From Anaerolineae bacterium (GTDB lineage Bacteria > Chloroflexota > Anaerolineae > S140-20): a DNA stretch of 64,000 bases. The stretch lies in assembly GCA_027021705.1 (NCBI GenBank), contig JALUTT010000010.1, forward strand, positions 1 to 64,000, given 5' to 3'. Position numbers and translations under genes: made by a program. The notes below the pieces were generated by a model. It was not told where the DNA came from and ran no database searches. It worked only from the letters and a program-made list of their open reading frames with translations. Positions 527 to 55,908 of the stretch are shown here, piece after piece (within the stretch, counting starts at the first letter, position 1; each line of letters starts with the position of its first letter).

Positions 527-1480
527 ATGGACTTGCGCATGCAACCGGCGACTCCCACAGTGGAACCGACAGCGCGCGACCGACGATCTATTGGCAGCCA
601 GCGTGTCCTGATCGTTGAAGACGAAAGTAAGGTCGCCTTCTTTTTACAAGAGAGCCTGGAAGCGCTGGAGCAGGGGCCTCAGGTCGTCAGCGTCCCCTCG
701 GCCGAGGAGGCACTCCACGAACTGGCCTACACCTCCTTCGAAGTGTTGGTGACCGACCTGAGGATGCCGGGGATGAACGGCCTGGAGCTGATTCGGCGAG
801 CTCAGGAGATGCAGCCAGGGATCACGACGATCCTCATCACTGCCTACGGTTCCGACGAGGTGCAAACCGAAGCTGCTCAGTTGGGCGTCTTCCACTACTT
901 TACCAAGCCCTTTCACATTGACGACTTCGTGGAGACAGTCCTGCGAGCCCTCCGGGAGAACCCGTTGCCGTCAGACTCCGTGCTGACCGGGGACCAAGTG
1001 GATCGGGTGGCGCGCCACTTGGAGGACCTGCGGCAGAAGGTGGGCGCTCAAGGGGCCTTCCTGGCCGATGAGATGGGCCGATTGCTCGTCCGGCGGGGAG
1101 GCTCGGTGAGCCTGAACGAGGAAGAGATGCTGGGCTATGCCCGGGAGAGCTTCCTGAGCGCTGTGCGGATGGCCCGTTACCTGGGGGAGAAGCACGTTTT
1201 CAACCTCAACTACCACCAGGGGACGGCTTACGATGTTTACACGGCCGGCGTGGGAGAGCGTTTTTTCCTCACGCTGACCTTTGATCGGCGGGTGCGCTCC
1301 AGCCAGATCGGGCTCGTCTGGCTCTACACCCGGCAGACTGTGGAACAACTTGTTCCCCTCCTGGCGGCTACTGGGGAGGTGGCCCAGCCCTCCAAGTCCG
1401 ATAGCCCGAAGCCAGCCCCGCGGACACTCTCGCTGCCATCGCCCATCCCGCAGGCTGGCGGGCTGGTGGAGTCGGGATAA
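527..1480 (+). CDS. Response regulator: receiver domain fused to a Roadblock/MglB-like domain
   Basis: REC motifs VLIVED, DLRMPGMNG, ITAYG, KPF; C-terminal GAQGAFLADEMGRLL...LTLTFD...IGLVWL resembles Roadblock/LC7. Confidence 0.85.
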   Translation: MDLRMQPATPTVEPTARDRRSIGSQRVLIVEDESKVAFFLQESLEALEQGPQVVSVPSAEEALHELAYTSFEVLVTDLRMPGMNGLELIRRAQEMQPGITTILITAYGSDEVQTEAAQLGVFHYFTKPFHIDDFVETVLRALRENPLPSDSVLTGDQVDRVARHLEDLRQKVGAQGAFLADEMGRLLVRRGGSVSLNEEEMLGYARESFLSAVRMARYLGEKHVFNLNYHQGTAYDVYTAGVGERFFLTLTFDRRVRSSQIGLVWLYTRQTVEQLVPLLAATGEVAQPSKSDSPKPAPRTLSLPSPIPQAGGLVESG

Positions 1481-1597
1481 GGCAGGCCCCCCGGTTGGAA
1501 GGGAGGAAGGAGTCGCCCAGAGAGGTTGCCGGTCGGTTGTGGTTGGGGATGGCAGGTCGTTGGGATGGCAATGATGGTGAGAACTGGGGAGAGACGT

Positions 1598-1768
1598 ATG
1601 CAAGGGAAGCGAGTGGGTCGGCTGGTAGGGCGTAAGGTTCGAGAGTTGGAGAGGCGTTTTCGAGAGTGGCTGGCGTTGGGATGGTTGAATGGTAGGACGC
1701 CGACCTGGCAACCGGTGCTCATCCCTGTCCGCCCCCTGCGGCGGCGGGGCAGGCGGTGGCACCCCTGA
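1598..1768 (+). CDS. Small basic hypothetical protein (56 aa)
   Basis: GGGGAGAG RBS before ATG; WQPVLIPVRP motif; downstream hairpins. Confidence 0.5.
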   Translation: MQGKRVGRLVGRKVRELERRFREWLALGWLNGRTPTWQPVLIPVRPLRRRGRRWHP

Positions 1769-1844
1769 CCGAGTGGGCTGATACAGTCCGGTGTCGGTCT
1801 GGCCGCGCCCGGCTCCGGCTGTATGGGCAACTTCCTCCTTCCGC

Positions 1845-1870
1845 TCGAGCGACCCTTCGGGGTCGCTCGA
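1845..1870. terminator. Hairpin between convergent genes
   Basis: TCGAGCGACCC-TTCG-GGGTCGCTCGA. Confidence 0.6.
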
Positions 1871-1924
1871 TGCGTTTTCTGAGGGATGGCGAGCTCAGAG
1901 GAACCGGTGATCCCGGGAATGTTC

Positions 1925-17015: not shown

Positions 17016-17450
17016 ATGGGACGGATTGTACACACTCAGAGTCCGGCTCGGATTCGCAACTACCACCGGCGCACCATCGCCGAACTCTTGCGCCACCTGA
17101 GCCAGAAGCCCCAAGTGGACGAAGAAGCGAAGGATATGGCCGCCCTGCTGGTCTACAGCCTGCGGGAGATCGGCCAGGTCAACGAGCGCTCGGCCCAAGC
17201 GTGGGAGCGGCGGGACTACTGGCTGAAGGCCGACCGCTTCCGCCGAGAATGGGCCTGGGTGGGCCAGATGGCCGAGGACCTGGAAGATGTGCTGCGCCAT
17301 CAAGCGTGGGACCTCCTGCCCCGCCTCCTGATGGACCTGCTGCCCCGCTTTGCCGACATCAAGGTCACCCGCCTGACCCGTTCGCCGGATCTCTGGCGGG
17401 GGGCCTATGACCGCCTCGTCAACGACTCTGCCGAATCCCCGCACCAATAA
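17016..17450 (+). CDS. Hypothetical alpha-helical protein
   Basis: GGAGG RBS, typical codon usage, AWERRDYWLKADRFRREW motif. Confidence 0.8.
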   Translation: MGRIVHTQSPARIRNYHRRTIAELLRHLSQKPQVDEEAKDMAALLVYSLREIGQVNERSAQAWERRDYWLKADRFRREWAWVGQMAEDLEDVLRHQAWDLLPRLLMDLLPRFADIKVTRLTRSPDLWRGAYDRLVNDSAESPHQ

Positions 17451-17467
17451 AGCAAGGGACCTGCCTG

Positions 17468-18127
17468 ATGGAGAACCTGGAACCCATCCTGGAGCGGATT
17501 CGTCTTCGTTTTGAGGCGGAGAACCAGGTGCGCGAGGAGACCCTGCGCCGCTCCCGCGAACTGACCCGCCTCTGTGCTACCGCCATCCGGGCCAGCCATC
17601 GCAACAACTTCGACGAGGCCGAACGGCTGCTGGCCGAGGCCCGGGCGGTGGCGGCTCGGATTCGGGAGGACACGGCAGCGTATCCGGCCATCTTCTACGC
17701 CGGCTACACCCAGGACGCCCTCAAGGAAATGGCCGAGGCCCACATCACCGTTGCCCTGGCCCACCACAGTCCACTGCCGGAGCCCGAGGCTCTGGGCGTC
17801 GAGTACCCGGCCTACCTCAACGGCCTGGCCGAGGCCGCCAGCGAGATGCGCCGCCGTGCCCTCGACATCATCCGGCGCGGCCATTCTCAAGAGGCCGAGC
17901 GGCTCCTGGAGGCGATGGACACCATCTACGGCCTGTTGGTCACCTTCGACTTCCCCGACGCCATCACGGGAGGGCTGCGCCGTCGGATGGACCAGTTGCG
18001 GGGCGTGCTGGAGCGCACCCGAGGGGACCTGACCCTGAGCATCCGGCAGGAGCAGCTCCAGCGGGCGCTCCAAGCTTCTGAGGAGCGGACGACCGGTGAA
18101 CCACCGAAAGCGTCGGAAGAGCGCTGA
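17468..18127 (+). CDS. Translin/TRAX-family protein
   Basis: REETLRRSRELTRLC..AIRASHR; acidic residues in KEMAEA and YLNGLAEAASEMRR; LRRRMDQLRGVLE. Confidence 0.85.
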   Translation: MENLEPILERIRLRFEAENQVREETLRRSRELTRLCATAIRASHRNNFDEAERLLAEARAVAARIREDTAAYPAIFYAGYTQDALKEMAEAHITVALAHHSPLPEPEALGVEYPAYLNGLAEAASEMRRRALDIIRRGHSQEAERLLEAMDTIYGLLVTFDFPDAITGGLRRRMDQLRGVLERTRGDLTLSIRQEQLQRALQASEERTTGEPPKASEER

Positions 18128-18365
18128 ACTGCCCGTTGTCCGGGCCAGCGAGATCGGGGCCTACGCCTACTGCGCCCGGGCCTGGTGGCTGGGCCACGTC
18201 CAGGGCGTGCCGCCATCGGAGACGGCACGCCTGGAAGCCGGCACCCGGTTCCACCGGCAGCACGGGCGGGGAGCGGCTCAGGGCGTGTGGGCCTGGCGGC
18301 TGGCCCTCTTCTTCTTCGCCCTCGCCCTCCTGGCCGCCCTGCTGGCGCTCCTCACCCTCGGCTGA
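18096..18365 (+). CDS. Cas4-like N-terminal fragment with C-terminal TM helix
   Basis: RASEIGAYAYCARAWW (first Fe-S Cys) and GTRFH, then hydrophobic LALFFFALALLAALLALL. Confidence 0.8.
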   Translation: MNHRKRRKSAELPVVRASEIGAYAYCARAWWLGHVQGVPPSETARLEAGTRFHRQHGRGAAQGVWAWRLALFFFALALLAALLALLTLG

Positions 18366-18382
18366 GACCGGAAGGAGGTGCC

Positions 18383-18904
18383 GTGCTCTTCCTGGGACTG
18401 GCTCTCGCCTTTCTGGTAGTGGGGCTGATCGGGCTCTGGTGGAGCCGGCGGCGGTGGGCGGCAGCCGGCCTGCCCCACGGCCAGATCGTCTACGCCGACG
18501 TGGGAGACGCCTTCCCCGTCCAGGAGGCCCTCTATGATCCCCAGTTGCGCCTGGTGGGCCGGCCCGACTACCTGGTGCGCCAGGGCCGGACCCTCATCCC
18601 CGTCGAGGTCAAGTCGGGGCGGGCGCCGGCCCGAGGGCCGTACCGCTCCCATCTCCTGCAACTGGCCGCCTACTGCCATCTGGTCGAGGCGCAGACGGGC
18701 CACCGCCCGCCCTACGGCCTCATCCGGTACGCGGACCGGACGGTGGCGGTGAACTACACCCCGGCGCTGCGGGAACACCTCGTGCAGACCCTGGCTCGGC
18801 TGCGGGCCGACCGTCAGGCCACTGAAGTGCATCGGGACCACCATCAGCCGGCTCGGTGCCGCGCCTGCGGCTACCGTGACCGCTGCGATGAAGCCCTAGC
18901 CTGA
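18383..18904 (+). CDS. Cas4-like PD-(D/E)XK nuclease, C-terminal part, with N-terminal TM helix
   Basis: AAGGAGGTG RBS; GRPD, PVEVKS, QLAAY, CRACGYRDRC. Confidence 0.88.
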   Translation: MLFLGLALAFLVVGLIGLWWSRRRWAAAGLPHGQIVYADVGDAFPVQEALYDPQLRLVGRPDYLVRQGRTLIPVEVKSGRAPARGPYRSHLLQLAAYCHLVEAQTGHRPPYGLIRYADRTVAVNYTPALREHLVQTLARLRADRQATEVHRDHHQPARCRACGYRDRCDEALA

Positions 18905-18966
18905 CCCAGCACGCAACACGCGACACGTGACCCATAACCCGCCACACCGTCCTCCAGGAGGCCCCG

Positions 18967-21900
18967 GTGAGATGTCCTCAGTGCCACCGTGAGGGGCTGC
19001 GCCCTCCTGACCCCTGCCCCCACTGCCACTTCAGCGGCGATCCCGCCCTGCTGGAGGAGTTGGCCCACGTCGCCTACCTGCTGGCCGAGATGGAGGGCTG
19101 GAACCTGCCGCCCAGCCTCCTGGCCCGCCTCCAGAACCGCTACCGGCGCCGTCAGACCGCCTTGGAGATCGCCCTCGGCCTTCGTCCCCTGCCCCTCTCC
19201 TCGGCTGATGCCCGCCAGCTCTGGTGGGAGGTCATCTGTCTGGAGGCGCTTCAGGAGCGGCTGGCCCACTGGGAGGAAGCGGGCTGGGTACGTCCCGGGG
19301 CCGCTCAGGAGCTGGCCGAGGAGTTGCAGCAGCGCCTCCAGACGCTGCAGGCCCGCCTGGCCGACGGCCCCCCTGCCCCGCCCTTCAGCACCCTCACCGA
19401 CCGCCTGGCCCTGCTCCGCTTTCTGCACCAGTCCCTGGACGACTTGCAGGACCGGGATGGCCTGGTGGACGAGGAAGCTTACGCTGCCGCTGCCGCCGAC
19501 CTGGAGGCGGAGATCGAGGCCATCGAGGTCACATTGGGGTTGCGCCCTGCCCCCAAACCTGTCCCCGAGCCCGCCCCATCGCCTCCGGCGGAGGCCGAGG
19601 TCGGCCTGGAGCCGCCCCCTCCTCTCTCCCAACGCCTCCGCGCCTGGTTCGACCGGGAGCGCCTCTGGCAGACCCTCCTCTCCGAGCGGACGCTGCGGGC
19701 GATGCTCTTCCTGGGCGTCTTCCTCCTCTTCGCTGCCGCCGTCACGCTGGTCGTCTTCAACTGGGGCCGCTTCCCGCCGGCGGTGCAGGTCTTCTTCCTG
19801 GCTGCCTTCACCTTCCTCTTCTACGCCCTGGGCTGGTACGTGCGGGTCTCGATGAGGCTGCGCAACTCCGGCATCGCCCTCACCGCCACCGGATCCCTCC
19901 TGGTCCCGTTGGACTTCTACGCCTTCTACCTGGGCGGCGGCTTCACGCCCTATGCCACGCCGGAGCAGGTCTGGTTCCTCACCTCGGTCGTCTGTCTACT
20001 GGCCTACCTGGTCACCGTCTGGGCCATCGAAGCCGAGTTCTTCGGCTACCTGGTGGCCGGGGCCGCCGGAAGCCTCCTCGCCGCGACGATGCGGATCGCC
20101 GGCCTTCCCACCGACGGACAGATCGCGGCCCTCAGCGCCTTGGCCCTGCTGATCGCGTTGCTGGCCGAGAGGGTGCGGGAGACGAAAAGCCGCTGGCGCG
20201 TTCTCCATCGCCCCTTCTGGCACGCCGCTCTCCTGGGCGTTACCGTGATCCTGTCCCTAGCCTTCGGGCGCTACCTGGCCGGGCTGCTCGGGGAGCGCTC
20301 CTTCCGCGCTGCCCTCGCCGCATCCTGGTGGTTCGGCAGCACCGTCTACGCCTTGGGAGCCCTGCGCTTCCGTTTTCGCCCCCTCTGGAGCCTTGGAATG
20401 GTGGGGCTGTCGGTGGCCCTCTACCTCACCCAAACGCTCCCCCTCGAGCGGGCCGGCCTGGCCTTCGCCTGGCACGCGCCCGGCCTGGCCGGGCTGACGG
20501 CCTTCTACGCCGTCCTCGGCCGCCGGCTCTACACCCACGACCGAGCCGACCCGCTGCGTCGCGCCTGTGGGCGTGTCACCCTGACCTGGAGTACCCTGCT
20601 GACCGGCATCGCGACCCTCTGGTCCTTCGCCAACCCGGTCACCGCCCAGGACGTTGCCACCGTCACCGGTGCCATCCTGACGCTCTCGACGGCGCTGACG
20701 GCCTGGCTGTGGCAGCAGCCCCGCCGGCTCTTCGCCGCCAGCTTCTTCTCCCTCCTCGCCATCACCACGGCAATGGCCTCCCGGGGCCTGACCCTGGCCC
20801 AGCTCTGCCTGGGCTGGACCTTGCTGGCCGTGCTCCACCTGATCCTGGCCGTCCGCCTGCGAGGGCATCCCCCCTTCGCCGCCTCCCTCTACGCCGCCGG
20901 GTTCGGGCTGGCGGCGCTGGCCCTGCTGCCTCCCCTGGTGGGCGGGGAGCAGGGATTGCTCGTCTACGCCCTGGGCAACTGGATCGTCCTGGCCGCCTGG
21001 GCCGCCTGGCTGGACCGCACCGGGCAGCACCCCGGCCTGGGGATCGCCCTCCGCCCCTTGGGCCGCCTGGCCCCCACCGCCCTCTCCTGGGCCGCCGCCC
21101 TTCCCCTCCCCCTCTGGCTCTGGCTGACCTGGACCCACACCTGGTCCCTGGGCCGCTTCGACCGGGCCTGGCTGGGCGTCGCCTTGGCCCTGCTCGCCGG
21201 GGCCCTCGTCCACCTTCCGCCCCGGTCCTCCCTCGCCCTCCCTTGGCGGGCTACCGGCTACCTCACCACAGCCGTGGCCGTTGCCGCCGGCCTGGCCTAC
21301 TTCGTCGGTGACCGACGCCCGCTGGCGCTCCTCTTCCTGCTCATCGCCGTCCTCTACTTCGCCTCCGCCGGGCGCTTCCGGCAGCGGCGGTGGCTCGTGC
21401 CGGCCGGGGTGACGCTGCCGGTGGCCTGGTGGCTCATCCTGGCCCACCACCGCCTGCCGACCGCTCCTACCGGCTCCCTGATGGCGCTGGTGCCGGCCCT
21501 CTACCTGCTGGGGGGGCTGCTGCTGGTCCACCGCCGGCGCGTCGAGGGGAACTTCCTGAAGCCGCTCAACTTCATCGCCCACGGGCTGACGGTGGTGGCC
21601 CTGTTGTGGGGGCTCGCGCCCCTGGGGACCCGGCTGGTGCGGAGCGTCGGGTGGGCCGATCCCGACCGCCTCTGGGCCGCCGGGGGGCAGGTGCTCCTGG
21701 GCATCGTCTATGGGCTGGTGGCCTGGGGCTACCGTCGGGAGCGATGGGCTCACCTGGCAACTTGGCTGGGCGTCAGCGCCGGGGGCATCGTCGCCACCGT
21801 CTACAGCCACGGGCGGGGCTCTTCGGCGGCCAAGGCGGCGCTGCTCGCCGTCGCCTACGTCTTGGCGGAACGGACGCTGTTGGCCCTGCGTCCGCGCTGG

Positions 21901-24699
21901 CCCCTCGCCCCCCGGGTCTGGCGGCTCTACCGTCGTCCGCTGCTCGTCGCCGGCTGGGCCGTCTCCGGCGGCACCGTCGTGCTGGCCCTCCTCCGCAACC
22001 TGGTGCTGTTGGGGGGTGGTCGGGTGCGGGAGACCTGGGCCGTCATCGGACTGCTCATCATCGTCGGCCTCTACGCCCTCTCCGCCCGCCTCTTCCGACG
22101 CCCCCTCTTCGTCTGGCTGGCGGCGGTGCTCGTCGTCATCCCCTGGACTCTCCTCACCCACCTGGGCTGGTTCTTCCTCCCCCATCCCCTTCGCCTGCCC
22201 CAGTACGCCCTCGCCTGGCTGGTCCTGGCCTGGCTCCAGGTGGGGCTTGGCCTGGGGCTCGAGGCCCGAGGCGCCCGTCCCTATGGCCTTCCCCTTCGCG
22301 TCGTCGCCCACCTGCTGGCCCCCTTCGGCCTGCTCTGGTCCCTGGCCGACCCCCCCACCGCCAGCATCGGTTGGGGGCTGGGCGTCGCCTTCTACGCCGT
22401 CTCGACGCTGGTGGACCACCGGCGGATGCCAGGGCAGGCGAGGGCGGCCCGCTTCCTCTACCCGACCGCGCTCCTGACGCCGGCCTGGACCGTCTACCTG
22501 ATGATCCGCTTCGCGCCGACGGCCCAGCATCACCACTTCGGGCTCCTGCTGCTGGCCTTCGGACCGCTGGGCCTGCTGATCGGACGCCTGTTGCGGCGCA
22601 TTCATCCTGCCGATGCGCTTCCCACCTACCTGGCCGCTTACGGCGCCGTCCTGGTCGGCACGCTCCTCGTCGCCCACCTGCGGCCCTGGCTCATCGGCGT
22701 CCTGCTCTTCGACGCCGTCCTCGCCGCCATCTCCGCCTGGCTCCACGCCGAGCCCCTCTGGGGCTACCCGGCTACCGCCTTCCCCATCGTCTCCCTGATG
22801 CTGGCCCTGACCGAGTTCCGGGTGGACCCGAACCGCCACGGCTGGCCGCTCATCGCCCTGGGCGCGGCCTACCTGCTGATCGCCCACGGATTGCGGCGGG
22901 CTCGCCGGGAGCGCTATGCCATCCCCCTGATGGCGGTGGCCTACATCGCGGTGGCCCTGGGGCTGCCCCCCTCCAGCCGCGATCAGGTAGGGGCTTTCTG
23001 GGGCTACGGTGGTGCGGCGGTGGTCTACGCCCTCTCGGCGGTCTGGTTGCGTCAGCCGCTCCTCCTGACGCCGGCCCTCCTGCTGGCAGCCGTGCCCTAC
23101 GGCGTGGCCCTCGTCCGCTCGTCGGTGGCTCCGGCCGACTACGGGCTCGGACTCTGGCCGGGGATCGCCCTCGTGCTGGTCGTGGCCCACCTGCTCGACC
23201 GTCGCCTGGGGGCACCCCGCGACTTCCCCTGGGGAGTCCCTACCCGCTGGCCGAGGGCCCTGGGGGAGCGCTGGTTCACCTGGGCGGGGCTGCCCTTCTA
23301 CGCGGTCGGCTACCTGGCCGCCGTTGTCGCCGTCGTCCTCTCGCTGGTCTTGGGAGACACCCTCCGAGTGGCCGCCACCCTGGGCCTGGCCGCGCTGGCC
23401 TACGCCCAGGCCACCTGGCGTTTCCGTCTGCGAGGGTGGCTCCTGGCCGCCGCCACGGCCGCCCAATTGGCCTGTCTGGCCCTGATCCATCGGCAGGTCG
23501 GTCTGGTCTGGCCTGCCCGCGCCGCCCTCGCCTTCCTGCCGGTGACGGCGGCCACCGCGCTGGTGGCCCTCCTGATCCAACGGTGGCTTGGAGAAGGCTC
23601 CCCTTGGAGGGGGTGGCGTGCTCTGGTCGCCGGGTGGTCCCGTCCCCTCTACCTCCTCCTGATGGCGGACCTGGCCCTCGGACAGGGGGCTGCTTTCGCC
23701 GAGGCGGGGCCGGGTGGGCTGGTCTCCCTGGGCCACGCCCTGATCGTCGCGCTGCTGGCTTCTGCCTGGATGCTGGGGCCGGCCACCTACGCGGCGATGG
23801 CGTTGGGCGTGCTGGCCCTCTTCCAGCGGTTGACCGCCTCCCACGCCCCGCTGGAGCGCTGGTTGGAGGCGTTGGCTCTCCTGGCCCTGGGGTACGGGGT
23901 GGTCGGCTACGGATTGCGCTACCTCTCCCGCCGGAGGGCGGCCCTGCCCCCCCGGCTGCGCCTTTGGGCGGAGCCGTTGGCCTACGGCGGGTTTAGCCTC
24001 ACGACGGCGACGCTGCTCTGGGCGGGGCTCTGGGGCGGAACCAGGGTGCTCTGGCTGACCTTCCTGGTCCTCATCGAGCAGCCCCTGCTGACGGCGGCCC
24101 AGGTGCCTGTGGTGCAGATGGTGATCACGGTGTCAGCCCTGGCCGGCCTGACCTACCTGGCGGTGGCGTTGGTCGAGAGGTGGCGTTGGCTGGGCTACGG
24201 CGCGGTGGCGCTTCTGTTGGTGGCCTACAACCTGGAACTGCTGCTCTTCCTCGGTCAGCGGGAGGTGCAGGGGTACGCGGTGCCGGCCGGCCTCTACCTA
24301 CTGGGCATTGGCTATCTGGAGTGGCGGGAGGGGCATCGCCCCCTGGCCCGTTGGGTGGACCGCACGGCGTTGCTGCTGCTCTTCGGTTCGGCCTTCTGGC
24401 AGTCCCTGGTGATGGAAGGGGGGTGGCGCTATGCCCTGCTGATGGGGGGTGAGGGGCTGGGGGTGGCCTGGTGGGGCAGTGCCCGGCGGCTGCGCCGTTT
24501 CCTCTACGGCGGCGTGAGCGCCGTGGTGCTCGCCGTGGTCGGACAGCTTGTGGAGCCCCTCTTCTCCGTCAACCGTTGGATCGTCCTCGGGGCCGTTGGG
24601 TTGCTGTTGGTGGGCGTCGCCACGCTGGTCGAGCGGCGGCTGGAGGCGGTGCTGCAACTCTCGCAGGAGCTGCGGGAGCGGCTGGAGCGGTGGGAGTAG
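18967..24699 (+). CDS. Giant polytopic membrane protein (1910 aa), DUF2157-like N-terminus with zinc ribbon
   Basis: CPQC..CPHC; three helical repeats; dozens of hydrophobic segments; AGGAGG RBS. Confidence 0.85.
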   Translation: MRCPQCHREGLRPPDPCPHCHFSGDPALLEELAHVAYLLAEMEGWNLPPSLLARLQNRYRRRQTALEIALGLRPLPLSSADARQLWWEVICLEALQERLAHWEEAGWVRPGAAQELAEELQQRLQTLQARLADGPPAPPFSTLTDRLALLRFLHQSLDDLQDRDGLVDEEAYAAAAADLEAEIEAIEVTLGLRPAPKPVPEPAPSPPAEAEVGLEPPPPLSQRLRAWFDRERLWQTLLSERTLRAMLFLGVFLLFAAAVTLVVFNWGRFPPAVQVFFLAAFTFLFYALGWYVRVSMRLRNSGIALTATGSLLVPLDFYAFYLGGGFTPYATPEQVWFLTSVVCLLAYLVTVWAIEAEFFGYLVAGAAGSLLAATMRIAGLPTDGQIAALSALALLIALLAERVRETKSRWRVLHRPFWHAALLGVTVILSLAFGRYLAGLLGERSFRAALAASWWFGSTVYALGALRFRFRPLWSLGMVGLSVALYLTQTLPLERAGLAFAWHAPGLAGLTAFYAVLGRRLYTHDRADPLRRACGRVTLTWSTLLTGIATLWSFANPVTAQDVATVTGAILTLSTALTAWLWQQPRRLFAASFFSLLAITTAMASRGLTLAQLCLGWTLLAVLHLILAVRLRGHPPFAASLYAAGFGLAALALLPPLVGGEQGLLVYALGNWIVLAAWAAWLDRTGQHPGLGIALRPLGRLAPTALSWAAALPLPLWLWLTWTHTWSLGRFDRAWLGVALALLAGALVHLPPRSSLALPWRATGYLTTAVAVAAGLAYFVGDRRPLALLFLLIAVLYFASAGRFRQRRWLVPAGVTLPVAWWLILAHHRLPTAPTGSLMALVPALYLLGGLLLVHRRRVEGNFLKPLNFIAHGLTVVALLWGLAPLGTRLVRSVGWADPDRLWAAGGQVLLGIVYGLVAWGYRRERWAHLATWLGVSAGGIVATVYSHGRGSSAAKAALLAVAYVLAERTLLALRPRWPLAPRVWRLYRRPLLVAGWAVSGGTVVLALLRNLVLLGGGRVRETWAVIGLLIIVGLYALSARLFRRPLFVWLAAVLVVIPWTLLTHLGWFFLPHPLRLPQYALAWLVLAWLQVGLGLGLEARGARPYGLPLRVVAHLLAPFGLLWSLADPPTASIGWGLGVAFYAVSTLVDHRRMPGQARAARFLYPTALLTPAWTVYLMIRFAPTAQHHHFGLLLLAFGPLGLLIGRLLRRIHPADALPTYLAAYGAVLVGTLLVAHLRPWLIGVLLFDAVLAAISAWLHAEPLWGYPATAFPIVSLMLALTEFRVDPNRHGWPLIALGAAYLLIAHGLRRARRERYAIPLMAVAYIAVALGLPPSSRDQVGAFWGYGGAAVVYALSAVWLRQPLLLTPALLLAAVPYGVALVRSSVAPADYGLGLWPGIALVLVVAHLLDRRLGAPRDFPWGVPTRWPRALGERWFTWAGLPFYAVGYLAAVVAVVLSLVLGDTLRVAATLGLAALAYAQATWRFRLRGWLLAAATAAQLACLALIHRQVGLVWPARAALAFLPVTAATALVALLIQRWLGEGSPWRGWRALVAGWSRPLYLLLMADLALGQGAAFAEAGPGGLVSLGHALIVALLASAWMLGPATYAAMALGVLALFQRLTASHAPLERWLEALALLALGYGVVGYGLRYLSRRRAALPPRLRLWAEPLAYGGFSLTTATLLWAGLWGGTRVLWLTFLVLIEQPLLTAAQVPVVQMVITVSALAGLTYLAVALVERWRWLGYGAVALLLVAYNLELLLFLGQREVQGYAVPAGLYLLGIGYLEWREGHRPLARWVDRTALLLLFGSAFWQSLVMEGGWRYALLMGGEGLGVAWWGSARRLRRFLYGGVSAVVLAVVGQLVEPLFSVNRWIVLGAVGLLLVGVATLVERRLEAVLQLSQELRERLERWE

Positions 24700-24707
24700 G
24701 GGGCGGG

Positions 24708-24851
24708 TTGCGAATTGCAAGTTGCAGATTGCAAGTGGTTTGTCAACTGAGATTTTGGTGGGCGCGAAACAGCCTTATAGGGAGGTGCTCACACCCACAA
24801 ATTCGGGGTTGACGGTCCACAAGTTGCAAATTGCAAATTGCAAGTTGCAAA
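24708..24851 (+). repeat. TTGCA(A/G)N heptamer arrays with an embedded palindrome
   Basis: Arrays at 24708-24736 and 24821-24851; GTCAAC...GTTGAC imperfect hairpin at 24742-24813. Confidence 0.85.
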
Positions 24852-24880
24852 GGCAAGGTGTTGGTTGAGGAGAAAGGCGG

Positions 24881-25301: not shown

Positions 25302-25378
25302 GCAAATTGCGAATTGCAAATTGCAATCTGCGAGTTGCAATCTGCAATTTGCAATTTGCAATCTGCAATCTGCAATCT
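25302..25378 (-). repeat. Heptamer array, mostly inverted relative to the upstream arrays
   Basis: TGCAATC/TGCAATT units. Confidence 0.85.
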
Positions 25379-25393
25379 GTATGGGAGTAACCT

Positions 25394-41278: not shown

Positions 41279-43915
41279 CTATCGGGAAACCAGGGGCAGG
41301 AAAACGCGGTAGGCGGTACTGGCGGCCCCGCTGTCCGGGTCCAGGTAGTTGGGGATGCCGTCGTGGTCGCTGTCCCCGGTTCCCTCGTCTTGATCCAGGA
41401 TGCCGTCGCCATCGGAGTCCAGGTCCAGATAGTTGGGGATGCCATCGCCGTCGGCATCGGGATCAGGGATGCCGTCGTTGTCGGCGTCGCCCGTCGCCTC
41501 GACGGCGTCGGGGATGCCATCGCCGTCGGAGTCGAGGTCGAGGAAGTTGGGGACGCCGTCGTGATCAGCGTCGCCTGCACCCTCATCGGCGTCGGGGATG
41601 CCATCGCCGTCGGAGTCGAGGTCGAGGAAGTTGGGGGTGCCGTCGCCATCGGCGTCGTCGGCTCCCTCGACGGCGTCAGGGATGCCATCGCCGTCGGAGT
41701 CGAGGTCGAGGAAGTTGGGGGTGCCGTCGCCGTCGGCGTCATCGGCTCCCTCGACGGCGTCAGGGATGGTATCGCCATCGGAGTCGAGGTCGAGGAAGTT
41801 GGGGGTGCCGTCGCCGTCGGCGTCGTCAGCCCCTTCGACGGCGTCAGGGATGGTATCGCCATCGGAGTCGAGGTCGAGGAAGTTGGGGGTGCCGTCGCCG
41901 TCGGCGTCGTCGGCTCCCTCGACGGCGTCAGGGATGGTATCGCCATCGGAGTCGAGGTCGAGGAAGTTGGGGGTGCCGTCGCCGTCGGCGTCATCGGCTC
42001 CCTCGACGGCGTCGGGGATGGTGTCGCCATCGGAGTCGAGGTCGAGGAAGTTGGGGGTGCCGTCGCCGTCGGCGTCGTCAGCCCCTTCGACGGCGTCGGG
42101 GATGGTGTCGTTATCGGCGTCCCGGTCTAGGTAGTTGGGGGTGCCATCACCGTCGGCATCACCTCTCCCTTCCAGAGAGTCGGGGATGCCATCGTCGTCG
42201 GTGTCGGGGACGGCGCTCACGTAGTCGGTGACGGAGACTTCGATGAAATCGGGGAGTTCGTTGCTCTTGGCCCAGGCGGTGTTCACCACCGGACCACCGC
42301 CCGCCGGCTGGAAGTCCTCAGCCACCTGGACCTGGAAGCGGAGGATCAGGTCCTCATCGGGGGCCAGGACCGTCTCCGACATCATCGCGGTGATTAGTAC
42401 CGTCCCGCTGTCATAGCTGAAGAGCAAGAGGTCGGCATTGGTCCAGACGGTGCCGCTGATGTAGGTGGTGTTCGTCGGCACCAGGTCCACGATGACGACA
42501 CCCGTCTGGGGGCGTCCCCCGGTGTTGGCAGCGACAACCTCGTAGGTGATGATGCCACCGGGGTAGAGGGGGGTATCGGTCCAGGAGACCTTGCTCAGGA
42601 TGAGCTCGTAGGCCAGAATAGCGGTGCTGGTTTCGGCGTCGTCGGTCACCGTCTGGCCCAGGCGGTCGCGGCCTGAGGCGGTGGCCTGGTTCACCAGCGG
42701 GTCCTCGTCCGACTCCTGGACGGTGTAGGACATCTGGCAGGTGTAGGAGTCGGCAGGGGCCAGGGTGTCTCGGTCGCAGTCCGGCACCGTGGCGGCGATG
42801 AGAGCATCGTAGACGGAGAGGTCGTAGAGGGGAGTGTCGCCCGTGTTGGTCACGGTGAAGGTATAGACGATGGTCTCACCGATGCCCGTCTGGGCGGGTC
42901 CCTCTTTCTCCAGGGCGATGGCTGGATGGAGGATGTCGAGGCTGTGGGAGGCGGAAGCGCTGGCCTGACGTCCGTAAGGGTCTGTGCCTACTGCGGCGGC
43001 TTCGTTGACGAGGGGGGGATCTGCTCCTGCGGGCACAGTGTAGCTGGCTTGGCAAGTGTAGGTGTCGCCGGGGAGCAGCCCTGAGTAGGCGCAGTTGGCC
43101 ACCTCACCGCCCAGCAGCGGGTCCGAGACCGTGACGTCCAGGGGGACCAGGCCGGTGTTGGTGATTTCGAAGGTGTAGGTGACCTCGTCTCCTTCGTGGG
43201 CGGCATCGGGACCGCTCTTGGTCATAGTCAGCGCCGGGGGAGCGATGATGTAGCAGACCTCCAGCCAGGGGCGCTGGCTGGTGACTTCGTATTCGCTGCT
43301 GTAGTACTTTTCGTACTCGGCGAAGCCGGCGTCAGGGACCTCCAGCACGATGCCGTAGTTGGGGCGCTGACCGTCCAGCCACTCTTGGACCAGGGCGGTC
43401 AGGTCACTGGTGTGCCAACCCTTCGTCTCTACGGAGAAGCTGCCGGCGACCTCGGGGTCCAGGCTCTCGGCGAAGCTTTCCCAGGTGACGGTGGACTCCT
43501 CCCAGGCGGTCGTAGCGGCGTGGATGGAGACGGTGGCCTGTCGGGCTCCCTCGAAGTGGTAGATGCCAAAGGTTGCCGAGTCCAGGATGGCTCCTTCCGG
43601 GAGGATGTCGTCTAGGTCGAACCAGAGAAGGGCCCACTTGCGGTAGACGTTCACCTTGCCTGTGTGCAGGTGGCGGGCGGAGCCCAGGTTGCGCTGGGGG
43701 AGCCCTTCCCAGATGCTGGCGTCGGCCACCGTGCCGAAGGTGCCCCGCTGAATGAGCACGCACGTCCGTTCCGGTCCAGTCTGGGGGAGGGCTTCTGGGG
43801 AGGTGGCCGATGGGCTCGTGGCCTGCACCAGGGTGGGGGAGAGGAGGAGAAGGGAAAGAAGCAGCCAGCTCAGAAGGGAAAGGATGGCTATAGGTCTGTG
43901 ACGTTGTGTGATCAT
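41279..43915 (-). CDS. Secreted surface protein: DNRLRE-like domain, Ig-like/DUF11 repeats, Ca-binding Asp-rich repeats
   Basis: Signal peptide; YTF.ITNTG repeats; DxDGDG repeats; C-terminal YRVFLPLVSR. Confidence 0.88.
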   Translation of the reverse strand: MITQRHRPIAILSLLSWLLLSLLLLSPTLVQATSPSATSPEALPQTGPERTCVLIQRGTFGTVADASIWEGLPQRNLGSARHLHTGKVNVYRKWALLWFDLDDILPEGAILDSATFGIYHFEGARQATVSIHAATTAWEESTVTWESFAESLDPEVAGSFSVETKGWHTSDLTALVQEWLDGQRPNYGIVLEVPDAGFAEYEKYYSSEYEVTSQRPWLEVCYIIAPPALTMTKSGPDAAHEGDEVTYTFEITNTGLVPLDVTVSDPLLGGEVANCAYSGLLPGDTYTCQASYTVPAGADPPLVNEAAAVGTDPYGRQASASASHSLDILHPAIALEKEGPAQTGIGETIVYTFTVTNTGDTPLYDLSVYDALIAATVPDCDRDTLAPADSYTCQMSYTVQESDEDPLVNQATASGRDRLGQTVTDDAETSTAILAYELILSKVSWTDTPLYPGGIITYEVVAANTGGRPQTGVVIVDLVPTNTTYISGTVWTNADLLLFSYDSGTVLITAMMSETVLAPDEDLILRFQVQVAEDFQPAGGGPVVNTAWAKSNELPDFIEVSVTDYVSAVPDTDDDGIPDSLEGRGDADGDGTPNYLDRDADNDTIPDAVEGADDADGDGTPNFLDLDSDGDTIPDAVEGADDADGDGTPNFLDLDSDGDTIPDAVEGADDADGDGTPNFLDLDSDGDTIPDAVEGADDADGDGTPNFLDLDSDGDTIPDAVEGADDADGDGTPNFLDLDSDGDGIPDAVEGADDADGDGTPNFLDLDSDGDGIPDADEGAGDADHDGVPNFLDLDSDGDGIPDAVEATGDADNDGIPDPDADGDGIPNYLDLDSDGDGILDQDEGTGDSDHDGIPNYLDPDSGAASTAYRVFLPLVSR
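41336..42205 (-). repeat. Coding tandem repeat, 84-bp (28-aa) unit, about 10 copies
   Basis: DSDGDTIPDAVEGADDADGDGTPNFLDL. Confidence 0.95.
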
Positions 43916-55012: not shown

Positions 55013-55267
55013 TCCCGTAGGAGGGCTTTTCAAGCCCGACCTGTCGGCCCTGGAAGGGCCTCCTACGAGCCTTCCCGTAGGAGGGCTTTTCAAGCCCGAC
55101 CTGTCGGCCCTGGAAGGGCCTCCTACGAGCCTTCCCGTCGGAGGGCTTTTCAAGCCTGACCCGTCGGCCCTGGAAGGGCCTCCTACGAGCTTCCCGTAGG
55201 AGGGCTTTTCAAGCCCGACCTGTCGGCCTTGGAAGGACCTCCTATCGGCCCTGGAAGGGCCTCCTAC
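55013..55267. repeat. Tandem array of GTAG-type REP doublets (60-bp unit, four copies plus a partial)
   Basis: GTAGGAGGGCTTTTCAAGCCCGAC-CT-GTCGGCCCTGGAAGGGCCTCCTAC. Confidence 0.9.
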
Positions 55268-55908
55268 GCCGTCTCCCGCTCTAACAAGGGCACGACGGCC
55301 TTCCAGATGTCGGTCTGCACCGCCTCGATGGGGCGATCGGCATCCAGCACTCGCCATCGTCCCGGTTCTGCTGCTGCCAGGGCGAGGTACCCTGCCCGCA
55401 CCCGTTGGTGAAAGGCTACCTCCTCTTGGTCTAACCGGTTCCACTCCCCTTCGCCCCGTTGGAGGGCCTCCCGTTTGCGTGCCAGTCCCTTCTCGACCGG
55501 CAGGTCCAGGTAAAGCGTCAGGTGAGGTTTTAACCCGCCGGTGGCGAAGTCCATCATCCTCCGTAGCGTCTCCAGATCCAGCCCGCGACCGTATCCCTGG
55601 TAGGCGAGGGTGCTGTCGGTGTAGCGGTCGCAGAGGACGATGGTGCCTCGTGCCAGGGCCGGGCGGATGACCTCGGCGACCAGTTGGGCTCGGGAGGCGG
55701 CGTAGAGCAGGACCTCGGTTCGGGGGTCCATCGCCCGGTTGCGGAGGTCGTGGAGCACGGCCCGAATCTGGTCGCCGATGGCGGTACCGCCAGGTTCACG
55801 GGTGGTGAGGACGGGCTGGCCGGCCTGGCGTAGCCGGTCGGCCAGCCGTTGGATCTGCGTCGTCTTCCCACTCCCCTCGGGGCCTTCGAAGGTGATGAAA
55901 AGGCCCAT
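55264..55908 (-). CDS. tmk: Thymidylate kinase
   Basis: FITFEGPEGSGKTTQ, TREPGG, CDRY..ST.AYQG. Confidence 0.96.
   Translation of the reverse strand: MGLFITFEGPEGSGKTTQIQRLADRLRQAGQPVLTTREPGGTAIGDQIRAVLHDLRNRAMDPRTEVLLYAASRAQLVAEVIRPALARGTIVLCDRYTDSTLAYQGYGRGLDLETLRRMMDFATGGLKPHLTLYLDLPVEKGLARKREALQRGEGEWNRLDQEEVAFHQRVRAGYLALAAAEPGRWRVLDADRPIEAVQTDIWKAVVPLLERETA

Follow-up and report, generated by a model that had tools for sequence, protein, structure and literature searches.

A conserved gene pair in Chloroflexota carrying a Cas4-family nuclease domain on two predicted membrane-anchored polypeptides

Background

Solo-Cas4 proteins (PF01930/TIGR00372) combine the RecB-type nuclease motifs of the Cas4 family with a pattern of one N-terminal plus three C-terminal cysteines and a location away from cas genes, and a monophyletic group of them has been reported in 'many Chloroflexi' (Hudaiberdiev et al. 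2017, PMC5704561). The main text of that paper does not use the words 'split' or 'truncated', its lone 'membrane' is about something else, and short fragments were discarded. The subject here is a pair of adjacent genes from an Anaerolineae bacterium (Chloroflexota; assembly GCA_027021705.1), found in a stretch of 64,000 nucleotides (nt) that comprises positions 1 to 64,000 of contig JALUTT010000010.1 and is called the window below. The pair shares the motifs, the cysteine pattern and the isolated location of solo-Cas4, whereas its domain is distributed over two polypeptides, each with a transmembrane (TM) helix; the two genes and their products are referred to as the N-half and the C-half.

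Two other described systems are relevant. In AddB and Cas4, one cysteine before and three cysteines after the nuclease core hold a [4Fe-4S] 'iron staple', and the same layout is found in the iron-staple domains of AddB, Dna2 and Exo5 (PMC3378879, PMC3466216). These are soluble single chains that are fused to, or work with, helicases, whereas the window pair has no adjacent helicase gene and its staple would join two chains. The second system is TP1/gp7 of the archaeal virus TTV1, where a Cas4 is also spread over two open reading frames (ORFs), with the first cysteine on one and the other three on the next (Krupovic et al. 2015, PMC4625639). As described there, the break in TTV1 falls within the QhxxY motif, the catalytic residues have been lost, and the N-terminal part became a nucleocapsid protein. 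In the window pair, by contrast, the break lies just after motif I, the catalytic residues are retained, a membrane anchor is predicted for both parts, and the two-gene layout has been kept across a bacterial phylum. No description of a split or membrane-anchored Cas4 other than TTV1 TP1/gp7 was found in the literature.

Two genes with complementary parts of a Cas4 domain

Both ORFs lie on the same strand at the positions given for them by an earlier, sequence-only reading of the window (Table 1), and the Cas4 motifs and TM helices that it claimed were recovered on re-reading the sequence, by profile search and by hydropathy. The profile search of both ORFs that it had proposed as a check gave complementary coverage of the TIGR00372 cas4 model, with positions 3-44 matched by the N-half (expectation value (E) 1.6e-4, under the cut-off) and positions 63-178 of 180 by the C-half (E 1.7e-16, 60.6 bits against a cut-off of 65). 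The C-half passes the cut-offs of Pfam PF01930 (36.0 against 22.7) and PF12705 (44.1 against 22), whereas the N-half passes none in the Pfam and TIGR00372 searches. Cas4 proteins are normally one continuous soluble domain of about 160-220 amino acids (aa); here the domain is spread over two ORFs, and a TM helix is present in each. Motifs II (D), III (ExK) and QhxxY of the RecB-type nuclease are all present in the C-half, and the four-cysteine pattern of the family is also present, but spread over the two polypeptides.

The N-half sequence includes VVRASEIGAYAYCARAWWLGHV and, later, EAGTRFHRQHGR; the stretch SEIGAYAYCARAWW corresponds to residues 18-31 and contains Cys26. Among 68 aligned N-halves, which have a mean column identity of 46%, the invariant residues are R16, A17, S18, E19, C26, R28, A29, W30, G49 and H53. 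When the N-half profile is compared with chain I of the Cas4 structure 8D3L (E 0.043), Cys26 aligns with the N-terminal cysteine and the G...H pair with the G..xH of that protein. For the C-half, seventeen positions are invariant in 56 sequences (G59, P61, D62, Y63, P73, E75, K77, S78, H90, Q93, Y97, C98, H153, R158, C159, C162 and C168). One of these, C98 (18674-18676), follows directly on QLAAY and is a fifth cysteine outside the four canonical cluster ligands. Both families are of uniform size: N-half proteins are about 78-100 aa long, and their profile retrieves 1300 cluster representatives at E<=1e-3, the best 150 of which all fall within 73-133 aa, a word-indexed search gives 190 N-half relatives (74-102 aa among the 120 listed), and the C-half has 1288 relatives, the best 120 being 168-194 aa. 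In databases, the C-half is called 'CRISPR-associated exonuclease Cas4' (CRISPR, clustered regularly interspaced short palindromic repeats) although it is not CRISPR-linked here, and the N-half is mostly a 'hypothetical protein' with no Pfam family.

The C-half starts 17 bases past the TGA codon of the N-half, in the -1 frame relative to it, and the C frame is already open from 18185, overlapping the N-half ORF. In the interval where both frames are open (18185-18365), the guanine-plus-cytosine (GC) content by codon position is 0.80/0.55/0.90 in the N frame and 0.92/0.80/0.55 in the C frame. Since the neighbouring genes have values of 0.73/0.46/0.86, the overlap fits the N frame and not the C frame. 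A terminator-like hairpin within the N-half (18289-18306) was also considered, and was put down to chance because two such hairpins were found against 0.9 expected.

Conservation of the split

The two ORFs are genuine genes that are conserved, separately terminated and co-inherited across the Chloroflexota. At the level of the assembly, Logan contigs from four runs were compared with positions 17400-19000. A contig from another study covers 17400-18620 with one substitution and no gaps, and a contig from a strain variant, which spans all of 17400-19000, differs by 38 substitutions in 1601 nt (2.4% diverged), again with no gaps; no insertion or deletion in 17400-19000 is listed in any of the four runs.

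In a sample of 41 related genomes (C-half at E<=2.5e-34, N-half at E<=2.3e-9), 28 have the C-half, and precisely these 28 also have the N-half. The two genes are adjacent in 13 of these, with 20-246 nt between the matched stretches, lie 683-969 nt apart in 11, and are unlinked in the remaining 4, either on different contigs (3 genomes) or separated by 2.8 Mb in a one-contig genome. This co-occurrence, together with the invariance of C26 and H53 in the 68 N-halves, bears out the conservation of the small ORF and its cysteine, the lack of which the sequence-only reading had named as fatal to its own proposal.

In the 11 genomes with a wider spacing, a whole gene lies between the halves, and where examined it encodes a YkuD L,D-transpeptidase, a cell-wall enzyme whose gene is inserted exactly at the break. 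For instance, in locus L013 the intervening gene (2164-2940; Pfam E 1.2e-14) has an N-terminal hydrophobic segment and overlaps the N-half stop codon by 8 nt, and the same kind of ORF was read in loci L005, L010, L012 and L014. Open frames of 345 aa and 379 aa in two genomes (G029 and G010) gave the appearance of an N-half fused to the YkuD gene; this was rejected, as the frame extends upstream and the N-half has its own stop codon.

Across the phylum, an even set of 301 genomes (C-half at E<=1e-15, N-half at E<=1e-4) contains the C-half in 94, the N-half in 81 and both in 80. Four of the 14 genomes with only a C-half have matches lacking the TM part, and thus represent ordinary Cas4-like genes. 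Three others were opened, of which two have a diverged N-half-like ORF just upstream and one has a contig end. There is one match per genome in 93 of the 94 C-half genomes, and presence by family is all-or-none (19/19, 17/18 and 21/21 as opposed to 0/13, 0/15 and 0/17). A further 80 loci were taken from named Chloroflexota assemblies (Anaerolineae, Anaerolineales, Caldilineae and 'Chloroflexia'). In 77 of them an N-half lies no more than 1.5 kb upstream of the C-half, 62 of these pairs being adjacent and 15 at least 200 nt apart; the other three loci lack an N-half, one of them having no upstream sequence.

A fused single open frame was found in none of the 80 named loci, none of the 28 relatives and none of the 94 phylum genomes with a C-half. 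The N-half stop codon in the 77 named loci is TGA in 39 cases, TAA in 26 and TAG in 12, and the frame offset between the halves of the 62 adjacent pairs is 0 in 23, 1 in 12 and 2 in 27, with 11 named pairs overlapping by 4 nt. Because all offsets and all three stop codons occur, a conserved frameshift or a specific stop-codon read-through is ruled out. Sixteen of the 23 pairs that share a frame have a single stop codon between the halves. At another in-frame locus (L030, genome G330, 1516-2280), a stop codon and one further codon are all that lies between the halves. A conserved -1 relation was considered because offset 2 dominates in the phylum sample, but the excess disappears in the 80 named loci (27/23/12) and in close relatives, and is attributed to the sampling of kin.

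Two further outcomes that could have undone the sequence-only reading, single fused orthologues and an error in the assembly, were looked for and neither was found, and its claim that the locus is not a frameshifted pseudogene stands, given separate ORFs kept across the phylum and independent contigs with no insertion or deletion. Judged from these comparisons, the split is old and conserved across the Chloroflexota, and is not a broken gene.

Membrane anchoring and topology

A membrane anchor on each half, as the sequence-only reading had claimed, is supported by hydropathy throughout the family. Hydrophobicity of TM grade is reached by a C-terminal 19-mer in 68 of 68 N-halves (2.08 or more) and by an N-terminal 19-mer in 55 of 56 C-halves (1.6 or more), and lysine and arginine are concentrated on the domain side of each helix. 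The N-half helix has a mean of 2.1 such residues in the ten positions before it and 0.6 after it, and the C-half helix 0.04 before and 3.0 after. Under the positive-inside rule, the positively charged flank of a TM helix stays cytoplasmic. The soluble parts of both proteins are thus predicted to be cytoplasmic, with both cut ends outside: the N-half would be tail-anchored, with its N-terminus in and its C-terminus out, and the C-half would be held by an N-out, C-in helix. A membrane hairpin split at its outer loop would have just this topology.

A natural fusion and its predicted fold

A search for longer proteins with the N-half profile, in which 8000 word-sharing candidates were scored and rare fusions may therefore have been missed, gave three hits: one true fusion (P0390), one gene call joining a translin-like gene and an N-half, and one N-half with an unrelated tail. 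P0390, a protein of 245 aa encoded on one metagenome contig, consists of an N-half, a TM helix, a 13-residue loop, a second TM helix and a C-half. An AlphaFold2 model of P0390 was built from an alignment (A4) of P0390 with 4 N-halves and 56 C-halves, so that its N part is 5 sequences deep. The mean predicted local distance difference test score (pLDDT) is 81 and the predicted template modelling score (pTM) 0.78, and the model contains a long helix at residues 28-62 and a second helix at 76-96.

In a Foldseek search with this model, Cas4 structures rank first (8D3Q_J, E 1.8e-6). VIA-align places residues 1-245 of the model on the Cas4 domain of 7MI5_A (10-208) with a Z score of 17.6, 178 aligned residues and a root-mean-square deviation of 3.3. 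Other matches are 7MI4 (Z 16.6), 8D3L_J (16.2), AdnA (13.0) and the Cas4-family protein SSO0001 (4IC1, 12.1); AddB, Dna2 and Exo5 are matched at Z 9-13. The likeness to solo-Cas4 in fold thus refers to the natural fusion P0390, whose model has the Cas4 fold, and not to a model of the window's own pair. Because the P0390 model matches Cas4, the two parts together would make up one complete Cas4 domain with about 67 extra residues, the hairpin. From this match, the four cysteines of such a domain would be expected to converge.

Proposed architecture

These features are best explained by one solo, non-CRISPR Cas4-family PD-(D/E)XK nuclease in which a two-helix membrane hairpin separates motif I from the first strand of the core, and which has been divided at the outer loop of that hairpin. 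The TM helices of the two halves would pair, a [4Fe-4S] cluster would be ligated across the subunit interface by one cysteine of the N-half and three of the C-half, as also proposed in the sequence-only reading, and a composite metal site would be formed by His53 of the N-half with Asp62, Glu75 and Lys77 of the C-half. In SSO0001, His62 is described as a catalytic metal ligand (PMC13621843), and H53 of the N-half may be its equivalent. If so, the active site is also shared between the chains, which would account for the survival of the small gene even where it is unlinked. Neither half alone would be a stable, active nuclease. By analogy with Cas4 and AddB, the assembled protein may be a metal-dependent nuclease that is tethered to the inner membrane face and attacks DNA ends or single strands. 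The reading favoured here is an obligate heterodimer of Cas4 type that faces the cytoplasm, with two proteins that most likely need each other to rebuild one active site and one cluster.

Weighing the explanations

A joint function of the two genes as one protein is considered probable (about 0.8), and catalysis as described above less so. A number of observations weigh against this interpretation. Taken alone, the N-half gives weak matches to Cas4 models (E 1.6e-4, 0.066 and 0.043, all under the cut-offs), and the C-terminal cysteine region of the P0390 model has a pLDDT of 54-62. The intact ribosome-binding site of the C-half, one of the arguments of the sequence-only reading, holds for the window, where AAGGAGGTG is strong, but does not extend to the family, since a simple scan finds a Shine-Dalgarno-like motif before the C-half in only 6 of the 62 adjacent named pairs. 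Between the two strains compared above, the N-half has no synonymous and four non-synonymous changes, all in variable columns outside the conserved positions (residues 3, 11, 12 and 39), and the C-half has eight synonymous and five non-synonymous changes. Although the numbers are small, strong purifying selection over the entire small ORF would lead one to expect a different pattern in the N-half. In addition, a Cas4 has been reported to be active without its cluster (PMC8610317), as has the solo-Cas4 of M. mazei (cited in PMC13621843), so the cluster need not be essential for catalysis. Finally, diverged pairs in other classes, such as L026 (genome G045, 852-1762, minus strand) and L025 (genome G174, 876-1908, plus strand), retain two genes, both TM helices and all four cysteines. 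The G045 pair has PSY for PDY and lacks both the ExK motif (EVK) and QxxxY, and that of G174 has PSY and lacks the N-half histidine. These are probable non-catalytic derivatives, and since they have lost catalytic residues, a pair can persist without nuclease chemistry.

Two of the alternatives would make the split itself an illusion. The adjacent ORFs in different frames, with the C frame open from within the N-half, are what a frameshifted pseudogene or a misassembled single-ORF Cas4 would look like. The probability of this is negligible in the face of independent assemblies with no insertion or deletion, the same split in 28 relatives, some 80 phylum genomes and 77 of 80 named loci with not one fused frame, halves that are unlinked in four genomes, invariant catalytic and cysteine residues, and a codon-position GC content that fits the N frame in the overlap. 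The other possibility is that a single polypeptide is made after all, by programmed -1 frameshifting or stop-codon read-through. Such a shift anywhere in 18185-18365 would join the frames, in-frame pairs with a single stop codon between the halves occur elsewhere, and one fused protein, P0390, exists. This explanation is nevertheless very improbable: every frame offset and every stop codon is used, a whole gene of YkuD type separates the halves in 11 of 28 relatives, four pairs are unlinked, and the C-half has its own start codon, with a strong ribosome-binding site in the window.

Two further alternatives accept both genes and question what they do. In one, the C-half alone is the membrane-anchored nuclease, and the N-half, a small membrane protein in its own right, is a relic or a regulator and plays no part in completing the active site. 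The C-half does hold motifs II-IV and three cysteines, its invariant Cys98 could in principle serve as a fourth ligand, and both the reported activity of some Cas4 proteins without a cluster and the substitutions in the N-half between strains would be in keeping with this. It is unlikely, however, given that C26, H53 and the RASE..C.RAWW motif of the N-half are invariant over 68 sequences that are otherwise only 46% identical by mean column, that the two halves co-occur strictly (28/28, 80/94 and 77/80) even when unlinked, and that the model of P0390 puts the N part in the canonical Cas4 position. In the other, the pair is a membrane-bound iron-sulphur (Fe-S) protein with a main role other than DNA cleavage, such as binding or tethering DNA, or sensing redox state or iron through an intersubunit cluster. 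The G045 and G174 pairs, which keep the genes, helices and cysteines but have lost catalytic residues, fit this view, which is quite improbable for the window: every catalytic residue is invariant in its own pair and in the 56 C-halves and 68 N-halves aligned, and it is this invariance that argues for catalysis in the clade of the window.

Genomic neighbourhood

No CRISPR-like array was found within the window, in line with the sequence-only reading that it holds no CRISPR, and no Cas1 was found on the contig of the window (C10). CRISPR-Cas loci are present elsewhere in the genome, with four Cas1 loci on contigs C155, C85, C104 and C117 (genome G000; L031-L033); the Cas1 matches on C104 and C117 are in two pieces. 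The Cas1 gene on C155 is directly preceded by a canonical, unsplit Cas4, an open frame of 234 aa that scores 139 bits on TIGR00372, above the cut-off. This protein belongs to the same family as the window pair (the split C-half matches it at E 2.4e-7) but differs in being unsplit and cas1-linked, whereas the pair qualifies as solo-Cas4, that is, a Cas4-family gene outside CRISPR-cas loci.

The neighbours of the pair are a translin-like gene, a 144-aa ORF and a 1910-aa membrane protein. In a PADLOC search, the three neighbours tested had no match, and only generic Cas4 and DruK nuclease models matched the two halves. The translin-like gene, whose 3' end is overlapped by the N-half start by 32 nt, matches Pfam Translin at E 1.5e-4, under the cut-off, and NCBIfam NF011160 ('haloacid dehalogenase superfamily protein') at E 1.4e-78, with 263 bits against a cut-off of 291. 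Of the 28 nuclease-bearing relatives, 20 have it no more than 250 nt upstream of the N-half, and in two of the four genomes with unlinked halves it has remained beside the N-half; overall it occurs in 37 of the 41 relatives, 9 of which are without the nuclease. In other classes the neighbours, read by eye, are different, and include an HD-domain gene or an RseP-like protease.

Since the pair is single-copy, near-universal in the clades that have it, set in an ordinary neighbourhood and accompanied by a separate canonical Cas4 beside Cas1, the evidence points to a vertically inherited cellular function, and not to CRISPR adaptation or a mobile defence island.

The 1910-aa ORF (18967-24699, plus strand) begins 62 nt past the C-half and has an N-terminal CxxC...CxxC zinc-ribbon-like segment followed by very many hydrophobic segments. 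Its sole match is a weak one to DUF2157 in the first 500 aa (E 1.3e-4, under the cut-off), and it has no PADLOC match. Just downstream of this ORF are runs of a 7-nt repeat of the type GCAA(A/T)(T/C)T (24703-24853 and 25302-25385). Further repeats include a tandem series at 41333-42206 (period 84 nt, ten to eleven copies, 73-86% alike), which probably belongs to a repeat-protein gene, and four to five tandem 60-nt units, two of them identical, with an internal inverted repeat at 55013-55273. The latter is not a CRISPR array, as there are no spacers.

Table 1. Features of the gene pair and of the gene upstream, in window coordinates
Feature	Coordinates	Strand	Remarks
Translin-like gene	17468..18127	+	upstream; probably in the same operon as the N-half
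Possible N-half ribosome-binding site GAGGAG	18080..18085	+	10 nt 5' of the GTG; read from sequence
N-half gene	18096..18365	+	GTG start, 89 aa; Cas4 N-terminal module and C-terminal TM helix (tail-anchored, predicted)
Cys26 codon	18171..18173	+	predicted first [4Fe-4S] ligand; invariant in 68/68 N-halves
His53 codon	18252..18254	+	predicted motif-I metal ligand, in G49...H53; invariant in 68/68 N-halves
N-half TM helix	18303..18359	+	residues 70-88; Kyte-Doolittle 19-mer mean 2.77
C-half ribosome-binding site AAGGAGGTG	18372..18380	+	2 nt 5' of the start; read from sequence
C-half gene	18383..18904	+	GTG start, 173 aa; N-terminal TM helix, Cas4/RecB-type nuclease core and three Cys
C-half TM helix	18383..18439	+	residues 1-19; Kyte-Doolittle 19-mer mean 2.55; followed by WSRRRW
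Motif II, GRPD (Asp62)	18557..18568	+	residues 59-62
Motif III, EVK (Glu75, Lys77)	18605..18613	+	residues 75-77
QLAAY (QhxxY motif)	18659..18673	+	residues 93-97; followed by invariant Cys98
C159-x2-C162-x5-C168	18857..18886	+	predicted three C-terminal cluster ligands; invariant in 56/56 C-halves

Conclusions

For annotation, the gene pair is easily mistaken for a broken gene, and the name given to the C-half implies a CRISPR link that is absent here. An Fe-S 'staple' that joins two chains, combined with an interchain metal site, would if true be an unusual build for a PD-(D/E)XK nuclease, and the pair represents a natural test of what the Fe-S cluster is for. A more far-reaching reading, offered tentatively and regarded as doubtful, is that the pair forms an obligate membrane-tethered heterodimer in which only the interface provides an active site and a [4Fe-4S] cluster, so that its assembly, and with it its activity, might be switched, for instance by iron, redox state or membrane events. 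It would then be a core Chloroflexota enzyme for DNA at the inner face of the membrane, such as DNA on its way into or out of the cell, a role also raised in the sequence-only reading, or DNA trapped at the septum of these filamentous bacteria. The single-copy, membrane-fixed form found across much of the phylum provides a concrete place to look, and, if the obligate heterodimer is real, it would give solo-Cas4 proteins their first defined cellular setting.

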